From a virus (Duplodnaviria; Caudoviricetes), in IMG/VR virus record IMGVR_UViG_3300025809_000080, positions 1 through 30,692 of that record: a stretch of 30,692 nt of DNA; one strand, written 5' to 3'. Each line of letters opens with the position of its first letter. The first letter of the stretch is position 1. The position numbers and the translations under genes were made by a program. Under the pieces are notes generated by a model. The model was not told the DNA's origin. It did no database searches and worked only from the letters and a program-made list of their open reading frames with translations. Below are positions 1 to 24,853 of this stretch, piece after piece.

Positions 1-3000
1 TCAGCATAAGACTTGTATCGCTCTATAGTTTCAAAGTGATTCTCTAAGGTTGTTGTAAAGTCAGCGTTAAGTATAGATACGTCACCCGTCAAATCAACCC
101 TCTCCTTTAATGCAGGGGCTACTTGAGCATTAAACACGCCGTTGAAATCTCCTTCATCTAAAAGCTTAGAGTCAACCTTGGTTTTTATAGTCTGAGTAGG
201 AAAGTAGTTTTCTACATAGCTTAAGTTTACATTGTTTACATCTGAATATACATCATTGGTTTGCTCAAAGTATTCATTGCTTAAATACTCAACCACTTTA
301 TCTGTGAACTCTACAACTTCTTTACCAAGGATGTTTTCAATTTGTTTTAACTTCTCATCAGTAAACCCTTGATTCCTCAACTTTTCTCTTTGCACACTGT
401 TTTTACTAAGAGCGTATATCCGCATTAATTGGTCAGCGTTAAATAACACATTATCTAAAGGTCTCTTTCTAACCTTCTTACCTTTTTCTTTAACCGTTAC
501 GGTTAAGCCATTAAACTTATGTACGCCTGTGGCTAGTTTAGATTGAATGTCCTTGTAATTTTTAATGCCATTTATAGAGCTTGCAATCTCATCCATCTTA
601 GTACGAGTACTCTGTAATCCTTTAGCATACAAACTCTCCATGGCGTTAAGGGATTCGTATACATTCTTAGTAAAGAACTTACCAACCTTGTCCAATCCAT
701 TTGTTAGAGTACCTAAGTGCTTTAAGTTATTAGCTATACCTGTTAAGAATTTACCCGGCTTGGTTAAAGGAAACTCAGACACATAAAGCTTGAAAGCTTT
801 ACCTAGCTGACCACTCATCAACGCATTATATCTTTCATTCTGACGAGCTCTAAGCTGCTCTTCAGTCAGTGGTGAACCGTCCTCATTGTAAAGAGCTGAG
901 TATCCTTGTTGTATATTGGAGTCAGCCTCATCTCTAAGAGCCTTCACCTCAGCCTTCTCAGCCTCAAGTTTTTCTTTTAGTCTAGATATTGATTCAGAAC
1001 GAGCTTCCTTTAAGTCTTTTAATAGTGCTTCAACTTCTTGAACACTCATGTCTTCTACGCCTTTGAATGATTCAAAAGCAATGTAAGCGTCAAGTTGGTT
1101 TTGCTCTTTAACCGTAAGCTTTCCTTCCTTAGATAACACCTCATCAATGTCAGGGAAGAACTTCTTCTCTATTGATTCAGCGTCAAAGTCGCCCTCAAGG
1201 ATTCTCTTAAGAACTCTTTTAGCTGCAGCAAAAAACTGCTGTCCTTGTGCATCTAACCCTTTACCTCTAGCTTTATTACTGTCAGTAATAGCTTTCTTAG
1301 CTTTTTCGGTAACAAACTTTAGAATATCTTTTACAACACCCTTCTTGTACTTTCCTTCTGAGTCGTTGAATACTTTAGCTACATACTCAGTGAAAGCGTC
1401 TACAGACTTAGCTTTAGTCACGTCAGTCTTAGCAAACTTTTTCAATATAGCAGATGCTTGCCTTTGAGTAAGAGTACCTTTCTTAATTAAAGCGTCAACC
1501 TCAGCGGATAAAGCTTGCTGCGTATCAGCTATAAAATTCTTAGCATCCTTCGCAGCCTTAACAGCCTCTTGCAACCTAATCTTTAACAGCTCACTTTCCT
1601 TCAGTGTTACCTTCTTAACATCTCTTATAGCACCGAGCAAACGACTTGGTGTAGGAGCTGTCTTCTCCTTTAAACCAAACTGCTTACGTATATCTCTCAG
1701 TAATTTTTCTCGAACTACATCGGTAGCTGTTTCATAAACACGAGAACCTTTAACATATTCAGCTACGTTGTCCATGATGTCGTTAAACTTAACACCACGT
1801 TTCTTTGATTTTTTAATAATACCCTCTACTTCATTAGCTAATCTATCATACCCCGGCACTAACTCTTCTGTAAGCTTAGGCTTTGGTGCTGCGGTCTTCT
1901 CAGTAGCAACAACCTCAGCAACCAACTCAGGCTTTACGCCCCTCTGTGTAAGCAATGCACTAATAGCTGCGTCTGAGTAACCCAAACCACGAGCCTTCTC
2001 AACGAATGATTTTACCTTGAAGTTAGATAGCTTCGTACCCCTACTAGAAGCGTCTGCCTTTTTAAATGCAGCCGAAGACTTCATCTCAGCTCTCTGTTTT
2101 TTTGTGGTTTTAATTTCCTCACCACTAAGTATGTCAGCTAGAGCAGTTCCTAGAAATTGGTCAAGAGTTAAGCCCTGAACATCTTCAGCCGTTAAGTCTT
2201 TGGATAGTTTAAACTCCTGTTTTATGTAGTTCCATAAACCAAGTAACCACTCAGTAAACTCACTCTTTAAGGCTCCTTGAGTTATAGTCTCACCCTTGTT
2301 ACCGATAAGAATTGCTAAGGCTTCATTGGCTGCTTTAGCTACATCACCATTGAATACCTCAAGTTGCTTCTTGTATACATCTGTTTCCTTTACTAACTCA
2401 ACACCTTTATTGTATATCTCTCTCCCTTTTTCAGTTGTCTGAAGAAAGTCAGTCCATACGTGACCCATCTCATGTATAGCTGTATTAAATATAGCCGACT
2501 CTGAGTTGTGAATATCAGGGTTAACATAAACGTCACCATTAACCGTTACACCGTAAACAACTTCCCCGCCTTTTAAATACTTCTTAACCCCTTCCGAGTT
2601 CATAACCTCGTTAAACTCTTTTGAGTCTACAGACAGGGTTACGCTTGGGAACGCTTTTCTTAAAAAAGAAACAAGCTTATTTACATTGTCAGTATTAGAG
2701 CTAGTTACAGCACCCACATAATCTAGAGAAGGTATACCTATACCAACACCTGCTTGCTGACTTAGTATGCTAGGCGCAGACGCTTTAGCTCCCTTAGACT
2801 CCTTTTGAATAAGTACCTTAAAGCTTTTCTCATACGCTTTAGGATAAGCTTTTTCCATAGGCACAGGATTTTCTAGTACACCAATTGATTTACCCTTCAC
2901 GCCGTAAGGATAGTTTGGATGCGTAGTCTCTAGCACCTCAGGGTTTAAAACGTCAACACCTACCAATGAAATTACACTACCAATAGGCACGTTTCTTAAT

Positions 3001-6000
3001 TCAGGGTCTGTAATTGTGTCAGTTATTACACCGAGGTTTAATTTTGTTTTAGCCTCGCTAGGTTGACCTTTCAATAAAGCTAACACGACAGGCTTCTTTG
3101 ATGCTGACGGAGTTTTAGATTTAGCTCCCGGAGTATTAGGGGTGCTAGATGTAACCTTTCCCATAAGCAAAGTCCTAGCGGGTAGTGAAATTTTCTTAGC
3201 AAACTCACTAGATAAAACTTGGTCAATAGACGTAGCCCCTGAATTAGATACCTGATTTTTAATTCTACGGTAAAGCCCTAGGGTTTTTAACTGCGACTTA
3301 GAAGGAGATTCTATTGAGCTTAATTTTTTAATCTCTAAATCCAACTCACTCTTTAATGCTTTAAGAGCCGCCTTTTTATTCTTAGAGGGTAGTGATTTTA
3401 TATTATCAGACAAAACTCTAAACGTAGCCTCGTTGGAAACTACAGAGCTCTCACCCATCTTAACAATATTCATTGGCACTAATCCATTATACTCAGGGTT
3501 TGCAGCCCACCAATCGTCAAACAAAGACTTGTTATCTTCGTATACCTGCTTAGCTTTTGAGATTATAGTGTCAGCCTCTTTAGTGTCTACGTTAGCCCAA
3601 GCAAAGTTCTCATGCCCCTTAGTTCCGTTAAATCCTACCGCACCCTTAAGGTTGTCAATAGTGTTGCCCGTTTCAGGGTTAACAGTATCACCTGTAGTAA
3701 GTTGGTCTGTTATGTTAAATATAGTTGGGATACCATCTACAACCTCTAATGTTGTAGAGTTTAAGGGTGTGTCCGTTCTTTCATTTAAAGCATTAACATC
3801 TATAGGGCTTGAGGCTTCAAAGCCTAGTTTAACATCTTTATTTGGTGACTCTATCTCGTTAATAACGTCAGTAACCTTAGCTACTTCTGACTCGTCAATC
3901 TGAGATTCTACCTCATCTCTTAATCTAAATTCAGGACCTTTATCAGCTAACTTTCTACTTCTTTTAATTTCTTTTTTATTGAAAATAATCTCAGACCTCA
4001 TCTCACGTTTCTTCTCCTTAATATCTTCTTTGTAGATATCTAGTTGATTTTTTTGGTCTTCCTTGAACTCAGATAACTGCTCTCTTAAATTCTCTAACTC
4101 ACTCAATCTTTGAGTAAGGGTTAGGTCTTTGTTTTCTTTTGTTTCTTTTATTAACTGCTTCAGCTCATCAACACCTGCTTTGGTGTTCCCTTTTTCTATA
4201 GCTATCTCTTCCTGAATGGTTTCAATCTCCCCTTCGTACTCCTCAGTAACATCATCAATCATTTTCTGAACTTCCTCTTGCTCAGTAAGCTCAGGTGCGA
4301 CTTCCTCAGCAACCGTCTCTTCAGGTGCAACTTCCTCAGTAATCACATCATCTAACTCGGTTAAATCTAACTGCTCGTCCGCAATAGCTTTATCTACCTC
4401 GCTCTGTAGCTCCGGAGAGACATCTTGTTCTTGTACATCTTCTTGTGCAACCTCTTCGGTAACTGCTGTGATTTCGGTGTCTCCTTCTCGAACTCCTTCG
4501 CTAACTGCGGCTTGTTCTTGTACATCCACCGTCTCTGCGCTTGGCTCTTGAATGGCATCTGTTTCTTCTGTTAATGGGTTCTCTTGGAGATTCTTTATCT
4601 CCTCTCTTATGACTTTAGCTCTATCCTTAGCTACCTGATTGTCTTTACCTTTAAGGTTATTTAACTCTACCTGAAGCTCTGTGATAGCGTCAAGCGTAGG
4701 TTGGTTCATCTCAGGGTCAGCCTCAGATATATCTCTCTTAGTTACAGCCTCTTGGTATTTCTTTGTGTACTCAGCCTGTAGCACATCGTCATTAACAATG
4801 TTAACCTCAGCCTTAATTAAATCGTTAGGGTTAGCCTCTCTAATAAACCTAGCCATGTCAGGCCCTGATACTGCAGCATTCTTATCTTTACCATTTATGT
4901 GGTACTTAGGGGCCTTGTATAGACCATAACCCACAGTTAATGGAGCTGTGGCCGTACCTGCAATACCTTCAAAACCAATCTCAGCAACGTCCATCTCCTG
5001 ACCCGCAACCAATCTACCTGCAACCTCACCCGCAGAACCACCTACAGCTTCAACAGTACCACCTGCGGTAGCACCTAAAAGTTTTCGACCTGTAGATTTT
5101 ACAACGCTAGTAGTAAGCTTACCTGCAAGACCGCCCGTGATAGCATCAATAGTACCAATTGTAAGACCACGCCCTACAGCTTTAAAGCGAATCTCATCCA
5201 TCGCCTCCTTGTCTCCCAATACAGCTCTTATATTCTCAGTGGTCATAGGCTTGTCACCAAGCTGCTCTTGCAGTAGCTCAGCATAAGTAAGGCCTGTCTC
5301 AAGTGTAGTACCCGCCATACCCATAGCACCTATTAAAGCACCGGCAGGTCCACCAACTAAAGCACCACCCGCTGCACCACTTGCTGCGCCCGCAAGGACT
5401 GCAGGGGTAGCCATAGCGCTAACTGACGATACAAATAACTGTGGTATAACGGTAGGGTTCTTAGCCACACCTTTTACAAAGCCTAGCCAACCGCCACCAT
5501 TCTCTTGATAAATTTTTTGGAAATCACGCATCTCATCAGACTCACCCATAGACTGCATGCGCTTTTGTGCAGCAATAAATTCTTGGATGTCATCATCTGA
5601 AACGTCAGAGCCTTTTGCAAACAACTCTAAAGCCTCGTCAACAGAACCACCTTGGGCTTGACCTGCTGCTCCTGCTCTATAGATGTCACCAAACAAATCG
5701 GTAAGTTCGTTCTTACCGAACACCCTCTCAATGGCGGTAGACTTCTCTAATGAAATCGGTTTATCACCCTGATACTGTCTACTTGGTTCTGCATCCTGTA
5801 CAACAGTATATTCAGAAGGTTCTTCAAGTGTGATAGACTCCGAAGAAATAACCTCTTCCTGCTGCTGTGGTATAGTAGAATCCGTAACGACCTGCTGAGA
5901 AACTGAAACCGAATCTTCTTTTTTTTTTACTCCTACTAAAACAGAGAAATCTTCAAAAGACTTTTGGTATCCCTTCTCTTGCACGTAACCGTAGTTATCG

Positions 6001-6110
6001 GCTAATACGTTTTCATTACTTTGTAGTAACGCATTAAACTCTTCAATAGATTTTTGATAACCTTTAGATACAGCTCTATCGTATAAATCTTTTAATACCT
6101 GCTCGTTCAT
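1..6110 (-). CDS. Giant internal virion (ejection/cargo) polyvalent protein with zincin-like HExxH motif; >2036 aa, 3' end beyond the window
   Basis: Translated by hand from ATG 6110 (MNEQVLKDLYDRAVSKGYQ...) and open to the window edge (...ERYKSYA). Absent from the ORF track because it has no stop. Contains a Gly/Ala zipper at ~5310-5400, an acidic linker at ~4200-4570, and HEMGH at 2460-2474 with a distal Glu (NEALA) at 2322-2324. Confidence 0.9.
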   Translation of the reverse strand, partial: MNEQVLKDLYDRAVSKGYQKSIEEFNALLQSNENVLADNYGYVQEKGYQKSFEDFSVLVGVKKKEDSVSVSQQVVTDSTIPQQQEEVISSESITLEEPSEYTVVQDAEPSRQYQGDKPISLEKSTAIERVFGKNELTDLFGDIYRAGAAGQAQGGSVDEALELFAKGSDVSDDDIQEFIAAQKRMQSMGESDEMRDFQKIYQENGGGWLGFVKGVAKNPTVIPQLFVSSVSAMATPAVLAGAASGAAGGALVGGPAGALIGAMGMAGTTLETGLTYAELLQEQLGDKPMTTENIRAVLGDKEAMDEIRFKAVGRGLTIGTIDAITGGLAGKLTTSVVKSTGRKLLGATAGGTVEAVGGSAGEVAGRLVAGQEMDVAEIGFEGIAGTATAPLTVGYGLYKAPKYHINGKDKNAAVSGPDMARFIREANPNDLIKAEVNIVNDDVLQAEYTKKYQEAVTKRDISEADPEMNQPTLDAITELQVELNNLKGKDNQVAKDRAKVIREEIKNLQENPLTEETDAIQEPSAETVDVQEQAAVSEGVREGDTEITAVTEEVAQEDVQEQDVSPELQSEVDKAIADEQLDLTELDDVITEEVAPEETVAEEVAPELTEQEEVQKMIDDVTEEYEGEIETIQEEIAIEKGNTKAGVDELKQLIKETKENKDLTLTQRLSELENLREQLSEFKEDQKNQLDIYKEDIKEKKREMRSEIIFNKKEIKRSRKLADKGPEFRLRDEVESQIDESEVAKVTDVINEIESPNKDVKLGFEASSPIDVNALNERTDTPLNSTTLEVVDGIPTIFNITDQLTTGDTVNPETGNTIDNLKGAVGFNGTKGHENFAWANVDTKEADTIISKAKQVYEDNKSLFDDWWAANPEYNGLVPMNIVKMGESSVVSNEATFRVLSDNIKSLPSKNKKAALKALKSELDLEIKKLSSIESPSKSQLKTLGLYRRIKNQVSNSGATSIDQVLSSEFAKKISLPARTLLMGKVTSSTPNTPGAKSKTPSASKKPVVLALLKGQPSEAKTKLNLGVITDTITDPELRNVPIGSVISLVGVDVLNPEVLETTHPNYPYGVKGKSIGVLENPVPMEKAYPKAYEKSFKVLIQKESKGAKASAPSILSQQAGVGIGIPSLDYVGAVTSSNTDNVNKLVSFLRKAFPSVTLSVDSKEFNEVMNSEGVKKYLKGGEVVYGVTVNGDVYVNPDIHNSESAIFNTAIHEMGHVWTDFLQTTEKGREIYNKGVELVKETDVYKKQLEVFNGDVAKAANEALAILIGNKGETITQGALKSEFTEWLLGLWNYIKQEFKLSKDLTAEDVQGLTLDQFLGTALADILSGEEIKTTKKQRAEMKSSAAFKKADASSRGTKLSNFKVKSFVEKARGLGYSDAAISALLTQRGVKPELVAEVVATEKTAAPKPKLTEELVPGYDRLANEVEGIIKKSKKRGVKFNDIMDNVAEYVKGSRVYETATDVVREKLLRDIRKQFGLKEKTAPTPSRLLGAIRDVKKVTLKESELLKIRLQEAVKAAKDAKNFIADTQQALSAEVDALIKKGTLTQRQASAILKKFAKTDVTKAKSVDAFTEYVAKVFNDSEGKYKKGVVKDILKFVTEKAKKAITDSNKARGKGLDAQGQQFFAAAKRVLKRILEGDFDAESIEKKFFPDIDEVLSKEGKLTVKEQNQLDAYIAFESFKGVEDMSVQEVEALLKDLKEARSESISRLKEKLEAEKAEVKALRDEADSNIQQGYSALYNEDGSPLTEEQLRARQNERYNALMSGQLGKAFKLYVSEFPLTKPGKFLTGIANNLKHLGTLTNGLDKVGKFFTKNVYESLNAMESLYAKGLQSTRTKMDEIASSINGIKNYKDIQSKLATGVHKFNGLTVTVKEKGKKVRKRPLDNVLFNADQLMRIYALSKNSVQREKLRNQGFTDEKLKQIENILGKEVVEFTDKVVEYLSNEYFEQTNDVYSDVNNVNLSYVENYFPTQTIKTKVDSKLLDEGDFNGVFNAQVAPALKERVDLTGDVSILNADFTTTLENHFETIERYKSYA
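4291..4344. repeat. 24-bp direct repeat with 30-bp period, encoding EEVAPE twice
   Basis: tcaggtgcgacttcctcagcaacc (4291-4314) versus tcaggtgcaacttcctcagtaatc (4321-4344), 21/24 identical. Confidence 0.8.
4394..4558 (-). CDS. Overprinted 54-aa basic protein in the +1 frame of the giant gene (MPFKSQAQRRWMYKNKPQLAKEFEKETPKSQQLPKRLHKKMYKNKMSLRSYRAR)
   Basis: ATG 4558 to TAG 4394-4396, purine-rich leader, 17 K/R. The N-terminus matches my recollection of small free-standing phage proteins starting MPFKSxxQRRWMY. Confidence 0.7.
   Translation of the reverse strand: MPFKSQAQRRWMYKNKPQLAKEFEKETPKSQQLPKRLHKKMYKNKMSLRSYRAR
5824..5928 (-). other. A10 slippery tract (5919-5928) and -1-frame extension RRFGFSFSAGRYGFYYTTAAGRGYFFGVYHT*
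   Basis: GTA AAA AAA AAA GAA in frame 0. The -1 frame stays open to TGA 5824-5826, has no ATG of its own, and has 11 aromatic plus 6 Gly residues and no acidic residues in 31 aa. Confidence 0.5.
5928..6107 (-). repeat. Two 30-aa tandem repeats at the N-terminus of the giant protein
   Basis: NEQVLKDLYDRAVSKGYQKSIEEFNALLQS / NENVLADNYGYVQEKGYQKSFEDFSVLVGV. Confidence 0.8.
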
Positions 6111-23258: not shown

Positions 23259-24359
23259 TTATTTTCTTTTAATACTCCTAATCTTTAAACCTCGACCTGA
23301 GTCACTGCTCAAAGACCTAACTTGTGCTCCTGATTTAACAGTTGAAGCAGGGGCGTTGCGAGTTGTCATATTAATATTCTTAGTCTTCCTCATAACATCC
23401 TCTGTCGCATTTGCTTTACCCTGCTCATAAAAAAATTGAGCAAACTTCTCAGGATTCATTGCAACGGCTAGTGCTTTGTGGTATCCTGCAGCGTCATTCA
23501 TAAGTCCGTTATCATCCAAATACTTGTTAACAAAATTCATTGGTGATAGCTGAGCCTTCTTTACTTCCTCTGCACTACCCGGATTAAAAGTGACTTGGTC
23601 TTCTCCAATATTGAACTCAAAACCTTTGAACTCATTGTTAAAAACCTCGTCAGTCTTTTGTGAGAACCACTCAGACTTTCTTTTTGTCTCCTCTTGCTGC
23701 GTTGCCGCCTCATTCAAATACTGCTTATACGCTTTGTACTCCTCATTCTCGCCCTCAGAGATAGCTTCCTGTCTTGACTCAAGTGGTTGCTTGTACATCT
23801 CCTGCTGCTCGGTAAAGTAGTTCTTAGCCTTAGCAATAGCTTTTTTCTTTGCCACCTTGATTTTCTTAATGTCCGACTCTTCATCTAAGTCTGCATCGTA
23901 GGAATACTCATCCATTAACGACTGAATGTCGTCATCGTCAAGAGCTGTTTCCGTAGCCTTAAGATAATCTCTTAGCAAAGATTCAGGGTTTACCTCATCA
24001 AAGTCCTGTTGTAATTTAACATAGTCACTGATGCCTCGCCCTGTTTCTTTTTTATACTTAAAATAAGCAGCTACATCCTCAGGTAGTTCTTCTTGAGCTT
24101 CTCGCTCTACAAACAACTCATCTACTGATGTAATCTCCTTATTGTATCTTTCTTTAATATGTGAAAGAACTTGCTCCTCGGTAATGCCTTGCGGCTCTTG
24201 CTGCTCAACCTCTTCGGCTTGCGGTTCTTCTATTACCTGAGTTTCTTCTGTTGGTGCTGAGTCCTCAAACTGCTCTTCATGCTTTTCTAGCAATTCCTCT
24301 TCCACCTCCGCTGTAGACTTCTGCTCTACACCGTCTAACGCTTTTACTTTAATTTCCAT
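23259..24359 (-). CDS. Capsid scaffolding protein, 366 aa
   Basis: Very acidic, helical protein with a basic C-terminus (LKIRSIKRK), immediately upstream of the capsid gene. Confidence 0.75.
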   Translation of the reverse strand: MEIKVKALDGVEQKSTAEVEEELLEKHEEQFEDSAPTEETQVIEEPQAEEVEQQEPQGITEEQVLSHIKERYNKEITSVDELFVEREAQEELPEDVAAYFKYKKETGRGISDYVKLQQDFDEVNPESLLRDYLKATETALDDDDIQSLMDEYSYDADLDEESDIKKIKVAKKKAIAKAKNYFTEQQEMYKQPLESRQEAISEGENEEYKAYKQYLNEAATQQEETKRKSEWFSQKTDEVFNNEFKGFEFNIGEDQVTFNPGSAEEVKKAQLSPMNFVNKYLDDNGLMNDAAGYHKALAVAMNPEKFAQFFYEQGKANATEDVMRKTKNINMTTRNAPASTVKSGAQVRSLSSDSGRGLKIRSIKRK

Positions 24360-24402: not shown

Positions 24403-24648
24403 TTAGACGCTTTTTCTTGTGACCCTACCTGCCTTGGTATTGGACACAAACTGTTTTTTTCTGCCGTACTTCTTTTTCTTTTTAGCAGTTGAAGCTCTTT
24501 CTGCTTTACTCATACTATTAGCTTTATTAAGTGGTAAACATCTATCAGGGTTCTTTTTATTCTTACTAGTACCGCACGCTCCTTTAATAGAACCGTCAGT
24601 CCCTATACGAACCCACTTCTCATCTCTCCACTTTTTAAGCTCACCCAT
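24403..24648 (-). CDS. Small basic protein, 81 aa
   Basis: MGELKKWRDEKWV..G.CG..P.RCLP, K/R-rich, TAATG-coupled to the upstream peptide. Confidence 0.8.
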   Translation of the reverse strand: MGELKKWRDEKWVRIGTDGSIKGACGTSKNKKNPDRCLPLNKANSMSKAERASTAKKKKKYGRKKQFVSNTKAGRVTRKSV

Positions 24649-24698
24649 TAGTACTTTGGTTTTTTAGGCTTCTTCTTTTTAGTTCCGTATGCTGCCAT
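24648..24698 (-). CDS. 16-aa Lys-rich micropeptide MAAYGTKKKKPKKPKY
   Basis: Exactly fills the gap between its neighbours, with TAATG stop/start overlaps at both ends (24698 and 24648). Confidence 0.7.
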   Translation of the reverse strand: MAAYGTKKKKPKKPKY

Positions 24699-24853
24699 TA
24701 TTTTTTAGATTTTTTAGCGTAGTTAGGGTCTTTACAATATTTACTTGCAGCCATGTTTGCATAAGCTGAAGGGTATCTGTCGAATGTTCTTTTTGCCCAC
24801 GCAATTCCTGCAGAGCATATCTTATTCTTTTTTGTTCTACCTTTTGTTGCCAT
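24698..24853 (-). CDS. Small basic protein, 51 aa (MATKGRTKKNKICSAGIAWAKRTFDRYPSAYANMAASKYCKDPNYAKKSKK)
   Basis: ATG 1 nt after the portal stop and TAATG overlap with the next ORF. Carries a YPSAYAN motif. Below the ORF-track cutoff. Confidence 0.8.
   Translation of the reverse strand: MATKGRTKKNKICSAGIAWAKRTFDRYPSAYANMAASKYCKDPNYAKKSKK

Follow-up and report, generated by a model that had tools for sequence, protein, structure and literature searches.

Background

Embedded genes are already known in phages from the spanins. A classical overprinted viral gene is E of phage phiX174, and the genes for the internal proteins (IPs) of phage T4, whose products offer another comparison, are not known to be nested. 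For spanin genes of the lambda Rz/Rz1 type, the spanin study describes embedded, overlapped, and separated architectures and proposes that embedding arises from separated genes via read-through across the small gene; it found no spanin family that combines embedded members with overlapped or separated ones (PMC6139136). The T4 proteins IPI-III are described in PMC9026906 as small, basic, poorly conserved, DNA-binding head proteins, with a 10-residue N-terminal tag that carries diverse cargo into the head.

The MPFKS family of small basic proteins resembles Rz/Rz1 in that a larger phage gene contains a small one in its +1 frame. However, unlike Rz1, the 54-aa member analyzed here contains no lipoprotein signal, Cys, or hydrophobic signal, and the hosts are head and cargo genes of more than one family. 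Identity as an Rz1-type o-spanin was thus rejected, given the lack of a lipobox Cys or hydrophobic signal and a host gene of at least 2036 aa. Unlike the spanin families, the MPFKS family shows free, overlapped, embedded, and fused forms, and a single family with both embedded and separated members is new relative to the spanin study. The T4 IPs offer an analogy in being small and basic, and the N-terminal module of the MPFKS family may correspond to their cargo-carrying tag; in contrast to the 10-residue T4 tag, the MPFKS module is about 38 aa long and predicted to fold. The family and its arrangement appear to be undescribed in the open-access literature, as judged by searches that did not use the motif itself.

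The nested gene and its genomic setting

The window, the whole 30,692-nt stretch of viral DNA analyzed here, covers the genes for the head, tail, and cargo of an aquatic phage, which form one block on the minus strand. The gene order (GroES-like, terminase, portal, scaffold-like, major capsid, ring and muzzle-like, a 591-aa gene, and a giant gene) is also annotated in Flavobacterium phage elemoF_6-3D (Elemovirus), in which the last gene is labeled "structural protein". The phage is Elemovirus-like, a Bacteroidota phage, and its scaffold-like protein matches phage records from Flavobacterium (68), Cellulophaga (4), Maribacter (1), and an uncultured source (1). Fourteen DNA runs, two of which are possibly its source, hold 87-100% of the sampled words of the stretch.

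The giant gene (3..6110, minus strand) is cut by the window end and encodes at least 2036 aa. Residues 122-595 match phrog_32588, and residues 121-870 match just 1 of 50,697 phage records. The protein is likely a virion cargo or ejection protein, as suggested by its position and by the precedent of crAss001 (PMC10172136). The scaffold-like gene (23259..24359, minus strand) lies between the portal and major capsid genes, and the designation "scaffold" reflects this position and its acidity. Although this gene hosts an MPFKS gene in other relatives, the window's own gene is empty, and no MPFKS copy was found in 80 loci selected with it. The portal-scaffold slot of the window (24403-24853), a frequent site of free MPFKS copies in other phages, holds three small basic ORFs on the minus strand: one of 51 aa (24698-24853; phrog_27331), one of 16 aa (24648-24698), which is under the usual gene-calling size limits, and one of 81 aa (24403-24648; phrog_23735). 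These are linked through TAATG overlaps.

The nested ORF (4394..4558) lies wholly within ORF 3..6110, in the +1 reading, one base downstream of frame 0. The original prediction of a complete ATG-to-TAG ORF of 54 codons with 17 K/R at this position was correct; the strand, which it left unstated, is minus. The product has only 3 D/E and consists of a conserved two-helix module of ~38 aa followed by a variable K/R tail. The start lies beneath residue D518 of the giant gene, and the acidic linker over the nested gene corresponds to residues 518-573, with 17 D/E and 1 K/R among 55 residues in the host frame (frame 0). On the comparisons described below, the +1 frame is very probably a real, selected nested gene. 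An exact 16-bp direct repeat (4424-4439/4511-4526), which gives two MYKNK sequences, is present as predicted. However, it is not a family feature: two MYKNK occur in only 1 of 172 nested copies, and the repeat is private to the window copy and incidental.

The MPFKS family

A search with the 54-aa peptide gave 46 candidates, 40 of which are short homologues, and a 61-sequence profile run against 1.84 billion representatives matched 4600 clusters at E<=1e-3, of which 764 reach E<=1e-10. The stand-alone homologues that had been anticipated were found: free members occur in cyanophages, Streptomyces phages, and bacterial contigs. Named members include FlowerPower gp48, mycobacteriophage Barnyard gp9 (35.2 bits on the family profile; PHROG 1375), and 201phi2-1 gp383 (31.6 bits; PHROG 16759). 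As had also been expected, gene callers miss the nested gene. About 15 billion called proteins do not include the exact peptide of the window, and the family ORFs of elemoF_6-3D and of the cultured cyanophages S-CBS2 (L160:4001-4111) and P-RSP2 (L161:4001-4123), which are free in the latter two, are missing from the annotation, in GenBank for both cyanophages.

The 54-aa peptide has no match in Pfam or PHROG at E<=0.01. Family members match PHROGs 1375 and 16759 weakly; both are function-less, and their members seen here are free-standing. For phrog_1375, 50 of the 61 members match at E<=1, all weakly (best 1.3e-5; window peptide 0.01). A lead to DUF3008 (PF11450), which came from an Atlas feature score of 0.84 to a cluster that is 37% DUF3008, was rejected, as 0 of 61 members match it at E<=1. 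One subtype, which includes the cultured elemo copy, carries a Cys pair (CY...WDC) in the two-helix module (L133:5175, L151, L152, L155, L580:35256); the pair is possibly disulfide- or metal-linked. At another locus (L078:3001-3799), a free copy heads a run of four further small K/R-rich ORFs, two with Cys clusters.

Arrangements of the small gene

MPFKS genes are found free, partly overlapped, nested (within giant genes or the scaffold gene), or N-terminally fused to larger proteins. In a broad set of 159 loci, the copy is free at 72, nested at 61, fused at 14, and partial or unclear at 12. The nested hosts form 7 multi-member clusters and 10 singletons that do not cross-match, although some of the GC-rich singletons may be chance; the firm minimum of non-homologous nesting hosts is two, scaffold and giant. 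In 25 of 66 scaffold-type copies, the +1 frame showed no second conserved nested ORF behind the first. Of the at least 507 viral loci retrieved with the peptide, the best 80 comprise 62 that are nested in a long frame and 18 that are not. Fifteen non-nested loci were examined, and 11 of them come directly after a long ORF with a relationship to either the giant gene or another nested host. At three loci (L052:2402-2837, L426, L010:3001-3017), the upstream gene extends, in the host frame, over 5 to 20 or more codons of the small gene. Such partial overlaps are possible engulfment intermediates.

To avoid ascertainment, 68 loci were selected by giant-gene residues 121-470, outside the overlap. 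Of these, 48 carry an MPFKS gene in the linker (including the window's twin contig, two loci cut by contig ends, and one with a frameshifted host), and 20 do not. Eight of these 20 records carry the gene elsewhere, seven within the acidic N-terminus of the scaffold gene (+1 frame) and one free after the giant gene. Of 42 long records, 38 of which had been selected because they contain a copy, 39 have a single copy, a 105-kb record has two, and 2 have none.

A quick capsid-protein tree (31-32 genomes) requires 7 changes among the four states, with a minimum of 3, and AU tests reject a single clade both for the free copies (p 4e-7) and for the giant-nested copies (p 9e-57). Because giant genes are mosaics of modules, these state changes may be module exchanges. 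Free copies lie inside a mostly nested clade, which counts against engulfment there, since a nested-to-free change or module exchange is equally plausible at that point as fresh engulfment. A module junction of the window's giant gene coincides with the nested gene (L397/G048 and L394/G047 versus residues 541 onward), and crossover within the conserved nested DNA might be one way in which giant-gene modules are exchanged. Nested and free giant genes align at 24-49% and in pieces only, and exact insertion boundaries were not found between them.

Possible role of the product

By analogy with the T4 internal proteins, we favor, at a probability of roughly 0.55, a head-internal basic protein with a targeting module. 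The product would likely be packaged inside the head. On the model of the T4 IPs, the folded N-terminal module would serve as a tag for prohead targeting, and the basic tail would be the DNA-binding part. AlphaFold2 predicts helices at residues 6-15 and 17-26, with pLDDT of 90-96 over residues 1-30 and low confidence for the tail. No solved relative was found by sequence (best E 0.067) or by fold (none with Z>=2), and structure matches in BFVD are to uncharacterized phage proteins. Weak structure matches (E>1) include small proteins of giant viruses (A0A3G5A2J1 and A0A5J6VIX9, from Harvfovirus and a Megaviridae sample). A predicted complex of the major capsid protein with peptide residues 1-40 gave an uninformative score of 0.00, which speaks neither for nor against the reading.

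The neighbors of 45 hand-picked free or partly overlapping copies, tallied without a background control and with one locus left out and one mis-centered, are 14 head (terminase, portal, head-protease, or head-structural), 5 tail, 2 lysis, 7 other, and 17 unnamed. Barnyard gp9 follows the terminase and portal genes, and the BUCT555 small gene lies between the terminase and major capsid genes. In longer proteins, the module is N-terminal in 110 of 120, and the partners among the 50 scanned include, besides others, lysozyme, NUDIX, InPase, DUF5661, and ligase domains. A strict targeting propeptide would behave differently from the module in two respects: it is not N-terminal in the other 10, and in Barnyard gp9 it starts at about residue 9. 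Virion mass spectrometry (MS) bears on one distant fusion only, CBB_322, the N-terminus of which is a member of a distant subfamily (profile 17.8 bits versus 10.8 for the best of 500 shuffles, the best domain covering profile positions 1-21). CBB_322 was detected in virions with 30 unique peptides, according to Table 4 of PMC5259590. Two PHROG families labeled "virion structural protein" match the 201phi2-1 protein gp383 at their N-termini. However, gp383 lacks the MS-identified flag that its neighbor gp382 carries, which counts against a head-internal role.

The same is true of four near-complete relatives (G007, G014, G047, G048) and of Calle_1 and phi18:3, in none of which an MPFKS copy is found, and of free copies on large chromosomal contigs of Acidobacteriaceae, Gemmatimonadales, and other soil bacteria (L472-L499, e.g. 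L483:4001, L496:4001), whose surroundings, by eye, are unlike prophages. L483 has neighbors that resemble Ku and a uracil-DNA glycosylase. Dispensability in at least four near-complete relatives and the chromosomal copies would fit a real nested gene whose product acts on the host cell (ribosomes, RNA, polymerase, membrane, or lysis) and not in the head, as would the position of FlowerPower gp48 between a peptidase and a holin, the lysis neighbors of 2 of the 45 free copies, and a conserved aromatic core that exceeds the needs of a plain polycation. Yet we consider such a role unlikely, if still a serious contender: of the 28 loci with a named neighbor, 21 belong to late structural or lysis blocks (14 to the head block); the two main hosts of nested copies are themselves head or virion genes; and the distant-subfamily fusion places the module at the N-terminus of a virion protein.

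Acidity of the host frame and probable origin of the nesting

The acidic motif of the host frame (DAIQE..VDV) had been read as the shadow of the +1 peptide. This is borne out by a set of 98 loci selected by the host-frame motif (see below), but the acidity is not passive, since the equivalent frame of free copies is stop-ridden and net basic. In 56 free copies, this frame has 6.6 stops per gene, with D/E at 0.09 and K/R at 0.19, whereas the host frame of 172 nested copies has D/E at 0.28 and K/R at 0.07. At third positions of the small gene, G accounts for 51% in nested versus 23% in free copies, and the ratio of G to A before xAA/xAG is 1745:449 in nested copies (GC 0.364) versus 168:346 in free copies (GC 0.382). 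The acidity of frame 0 is selected, through the synonymous freedom of the peptide, and is not automatic; the lack of stops in this frame is selected as well, alongside the sequence of the +1 frame.

Selected acidity of the overlapping frame could also mean that the basic peptide and the acidic stretch are partners, with the linker chaperoning or carrying the peptide and the nesting coupling their synthesis. In line with this, nesting is always in the acid-capable frame, with none of the 159 loci nested in the other frame. Still, a partnership seems improbable. The hosts are non-homologous (scaffold versus giant, and 7 multi-member clusters without cross-matches), close relatives with free copies have giant proteins without a strongly acidic window, and the adjoining linker is acidic as well, so that ordinary linker selection suffices.

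The direction of the event is the reverse of the predicted "overprinted" gene. The distribution of the basic gene is far wider than that of any host frame, and the host linker is therefore the later reading; by its distribution, the small gene is the older partner, and engulfment rather than overprinting describes its nesting. Classical overprinting, in which the nested frame is younger and narrower, was rejected on the comparison of 4600 clusters with a host segment (residues 121-870) present in 1 of 50,697 records. As in overprinting of the phiX174 E type, one stretch of DNA encodes two proteins, one of them in a tolerant region. However, overprinting involves a young, narrow nested frame, whereas here the nested frame is widespread and the host segment is variable and lineage-specific. 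We infer that a small gene already present, in free form, next to head or cargo genes became engulfed as the disordered linker or N-terminus of a neighbor extended across it. The nesting would then persist as third positions of the small gene switch to G, turning Lys and stop codons of the other frame into Glu, and the arrangement would spread with the exchange of giant-gene modules.

Probable translation of the nested frame

Translation of the nested gene is likely to occur by internal initiation on late structural mRNA. An SD-like motif is found at 0 of 18 window starts, which fits a Bacteroidota host (PMC6847099). The determinants reported there for F. johnsoniae are A at -13, -12, -6, and -3. 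The region upstream of the nested start (4559..4579, minus strand) is likely an SD-less, A-rich initiation region with A at -13, -12, and -6; the C at -3, unlike the F. johnsoniae determinant, counts against the favored explanation. On a matrix from the 18 window starts (mechanical first-ATG picks, with two mis-set starts dropped), the nested start scores 2.36, within the range of the window's gene starts and above all 76 other out-of-frame ATGs of the giant gene. Across 194 nested copies, the frequency of A at -13/-12/-11 is 0.80/0.80/0.82; this matches the F. johnsoniae determinants, although acidic linkers are A-rich in any case. A scan for promoters and terminators gave results at chance level, and the RNA fold at the start site is not unusual (z 0.18). 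Contigs from two metatranscriptome runs of one study span the region, with neither strand nor translation visible in them.

Programmed frameshifting into the +1 frame would instead yield a truncated giant protein with a basic tail and no separate protein, and one singleton protein (P0106) does have a long N-terminal part ending in most of the peptide. This is very improbable: the Met is kept in 96 of 98 loci of the host-motif set and serves as the start of free copies, the median distance at which the +1 frame closes upstream is 5 codons in the 194 nested copies, and the bases upstream of the nested ATG resemble those of true starts.

The cultured relative elemoF_6-3D (vB_FspP_elemoF_6-3D, a phage of Flavobacterium sp. 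BAL314) carries an unannotated 42-codon copy, nested in its giant structural gene (+1 frame, about codon 1221) with the ATG at position 52379 of NC_055853.1, and 68 elemo records are identical across residues 1-29 of the nested peptide.

Selection on the +1 frame

When the frame-0 synonymous codons of 39 unique orthologous segments are randomized, an intact ORF (ATG plus 36 open codons) is expected in 4.1 of the 39; it is observed in all 39. With a profile built from 15 non-nested copies only, 0 of 200 randomizations per locus reached the observed score. This set had itself been detected with the non-nested profile, and the unbiased test is the host-motif set, which was selected by the DNA pattern of the host-frame motif with free synonymous choice. 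A scan of 28 of 64 parts gave at least 119 loci, 98 of them unique; of the hosts, 53 are scaffolds, 16 match the giant protein of the window, 25 have matches to other nested hosts only, and 4 are unassigned. The conservation of the ATG and the open +1 frame that had been predicted holds in this set, chosen independently of the +1 frame: ATG is present in 96 of 98 loci and is followed by at least 30 open codons in 95 of 98. Host codons are frozen as Ala GCC (98/98), Asp12 GAT (98/98), and Val11 GTG (97/98).

The predicted suppression of synonymous variation in frame 0 is likewise evident. Among 33 pairs with at least 80% host identity, divergence at host codon positions 1/2/3 is 0.074/0.044/0.254 outside the overlap and 0.111/0.048/0.049 inside it. 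On a spanning tree of 32 cores, from which three loci with insertions were left out, +1-silent changes occur at 2.78 times their share and frame-0-silent changes at 0.61 times. Related sequences are non-independent, and no p-value is claimed for these tests.

Two equally basic +1 ORFs of the scaffold gene, starting at 23884 and 23713 (minus strand; 56 and 50 aa, K/R 0.34 and 0.32), served as negative controls. Their third-position divergence is ordinary (0.263 and 0.213; control 0.218), and of 49 orthologues, 1 has the first ORF open over 36 codons and 25 retain the ATG of the second. These ORFs behave as unselected shadows. An untranslated shadow or relic, meaning either the default basic +1 ORF of a Glu-rich frame, such as the two that acidic coding yields in the scaffold gene, or a decaying insertion, as the loss of start or frame in 3 of 98 copies might suggest, can be set aside as the least probable account of the nested frame, because the shift in codon positions holds among close pairs, four-fold sites are frozen, and default shadow ORFs fail the same selection test.

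Conclusions

A broader reading, which we hold only tentatively, is that MPFKS represents a single ancient family of head-internal basic microproteins, a "stowaway" class that comes to lie, time and again, in +1 under the acidic linkers of virion genes that are unrelated, namely scaffolds and several giant ejection proteins, writes these linkers through its own synonymous sites, and doubles as a capsid-loading tag. If so, a large share of aquatic podophage genomes would carry a systematically unannotated virion component. The usual account of nested genes is that new frames arise over old genes; the MPFKS family is an example of the opposite route. Its free, overlapped, embedded, and fused states coexist within one family, and two non-homologous hosts occur within one phage lineage. 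The use of G at third positions provides a measurable codon mechanism that lets a polycation and a polyanion share DNA, and the nested gene accounts for a recurrent acidic motif in phage scaffold and cargo proteins. Nested MPFKS genes mark a blind spot of annotation, and the cultured Flavobacterium phage group that carries a nested copy offers a system in which these ideas are directly testable.
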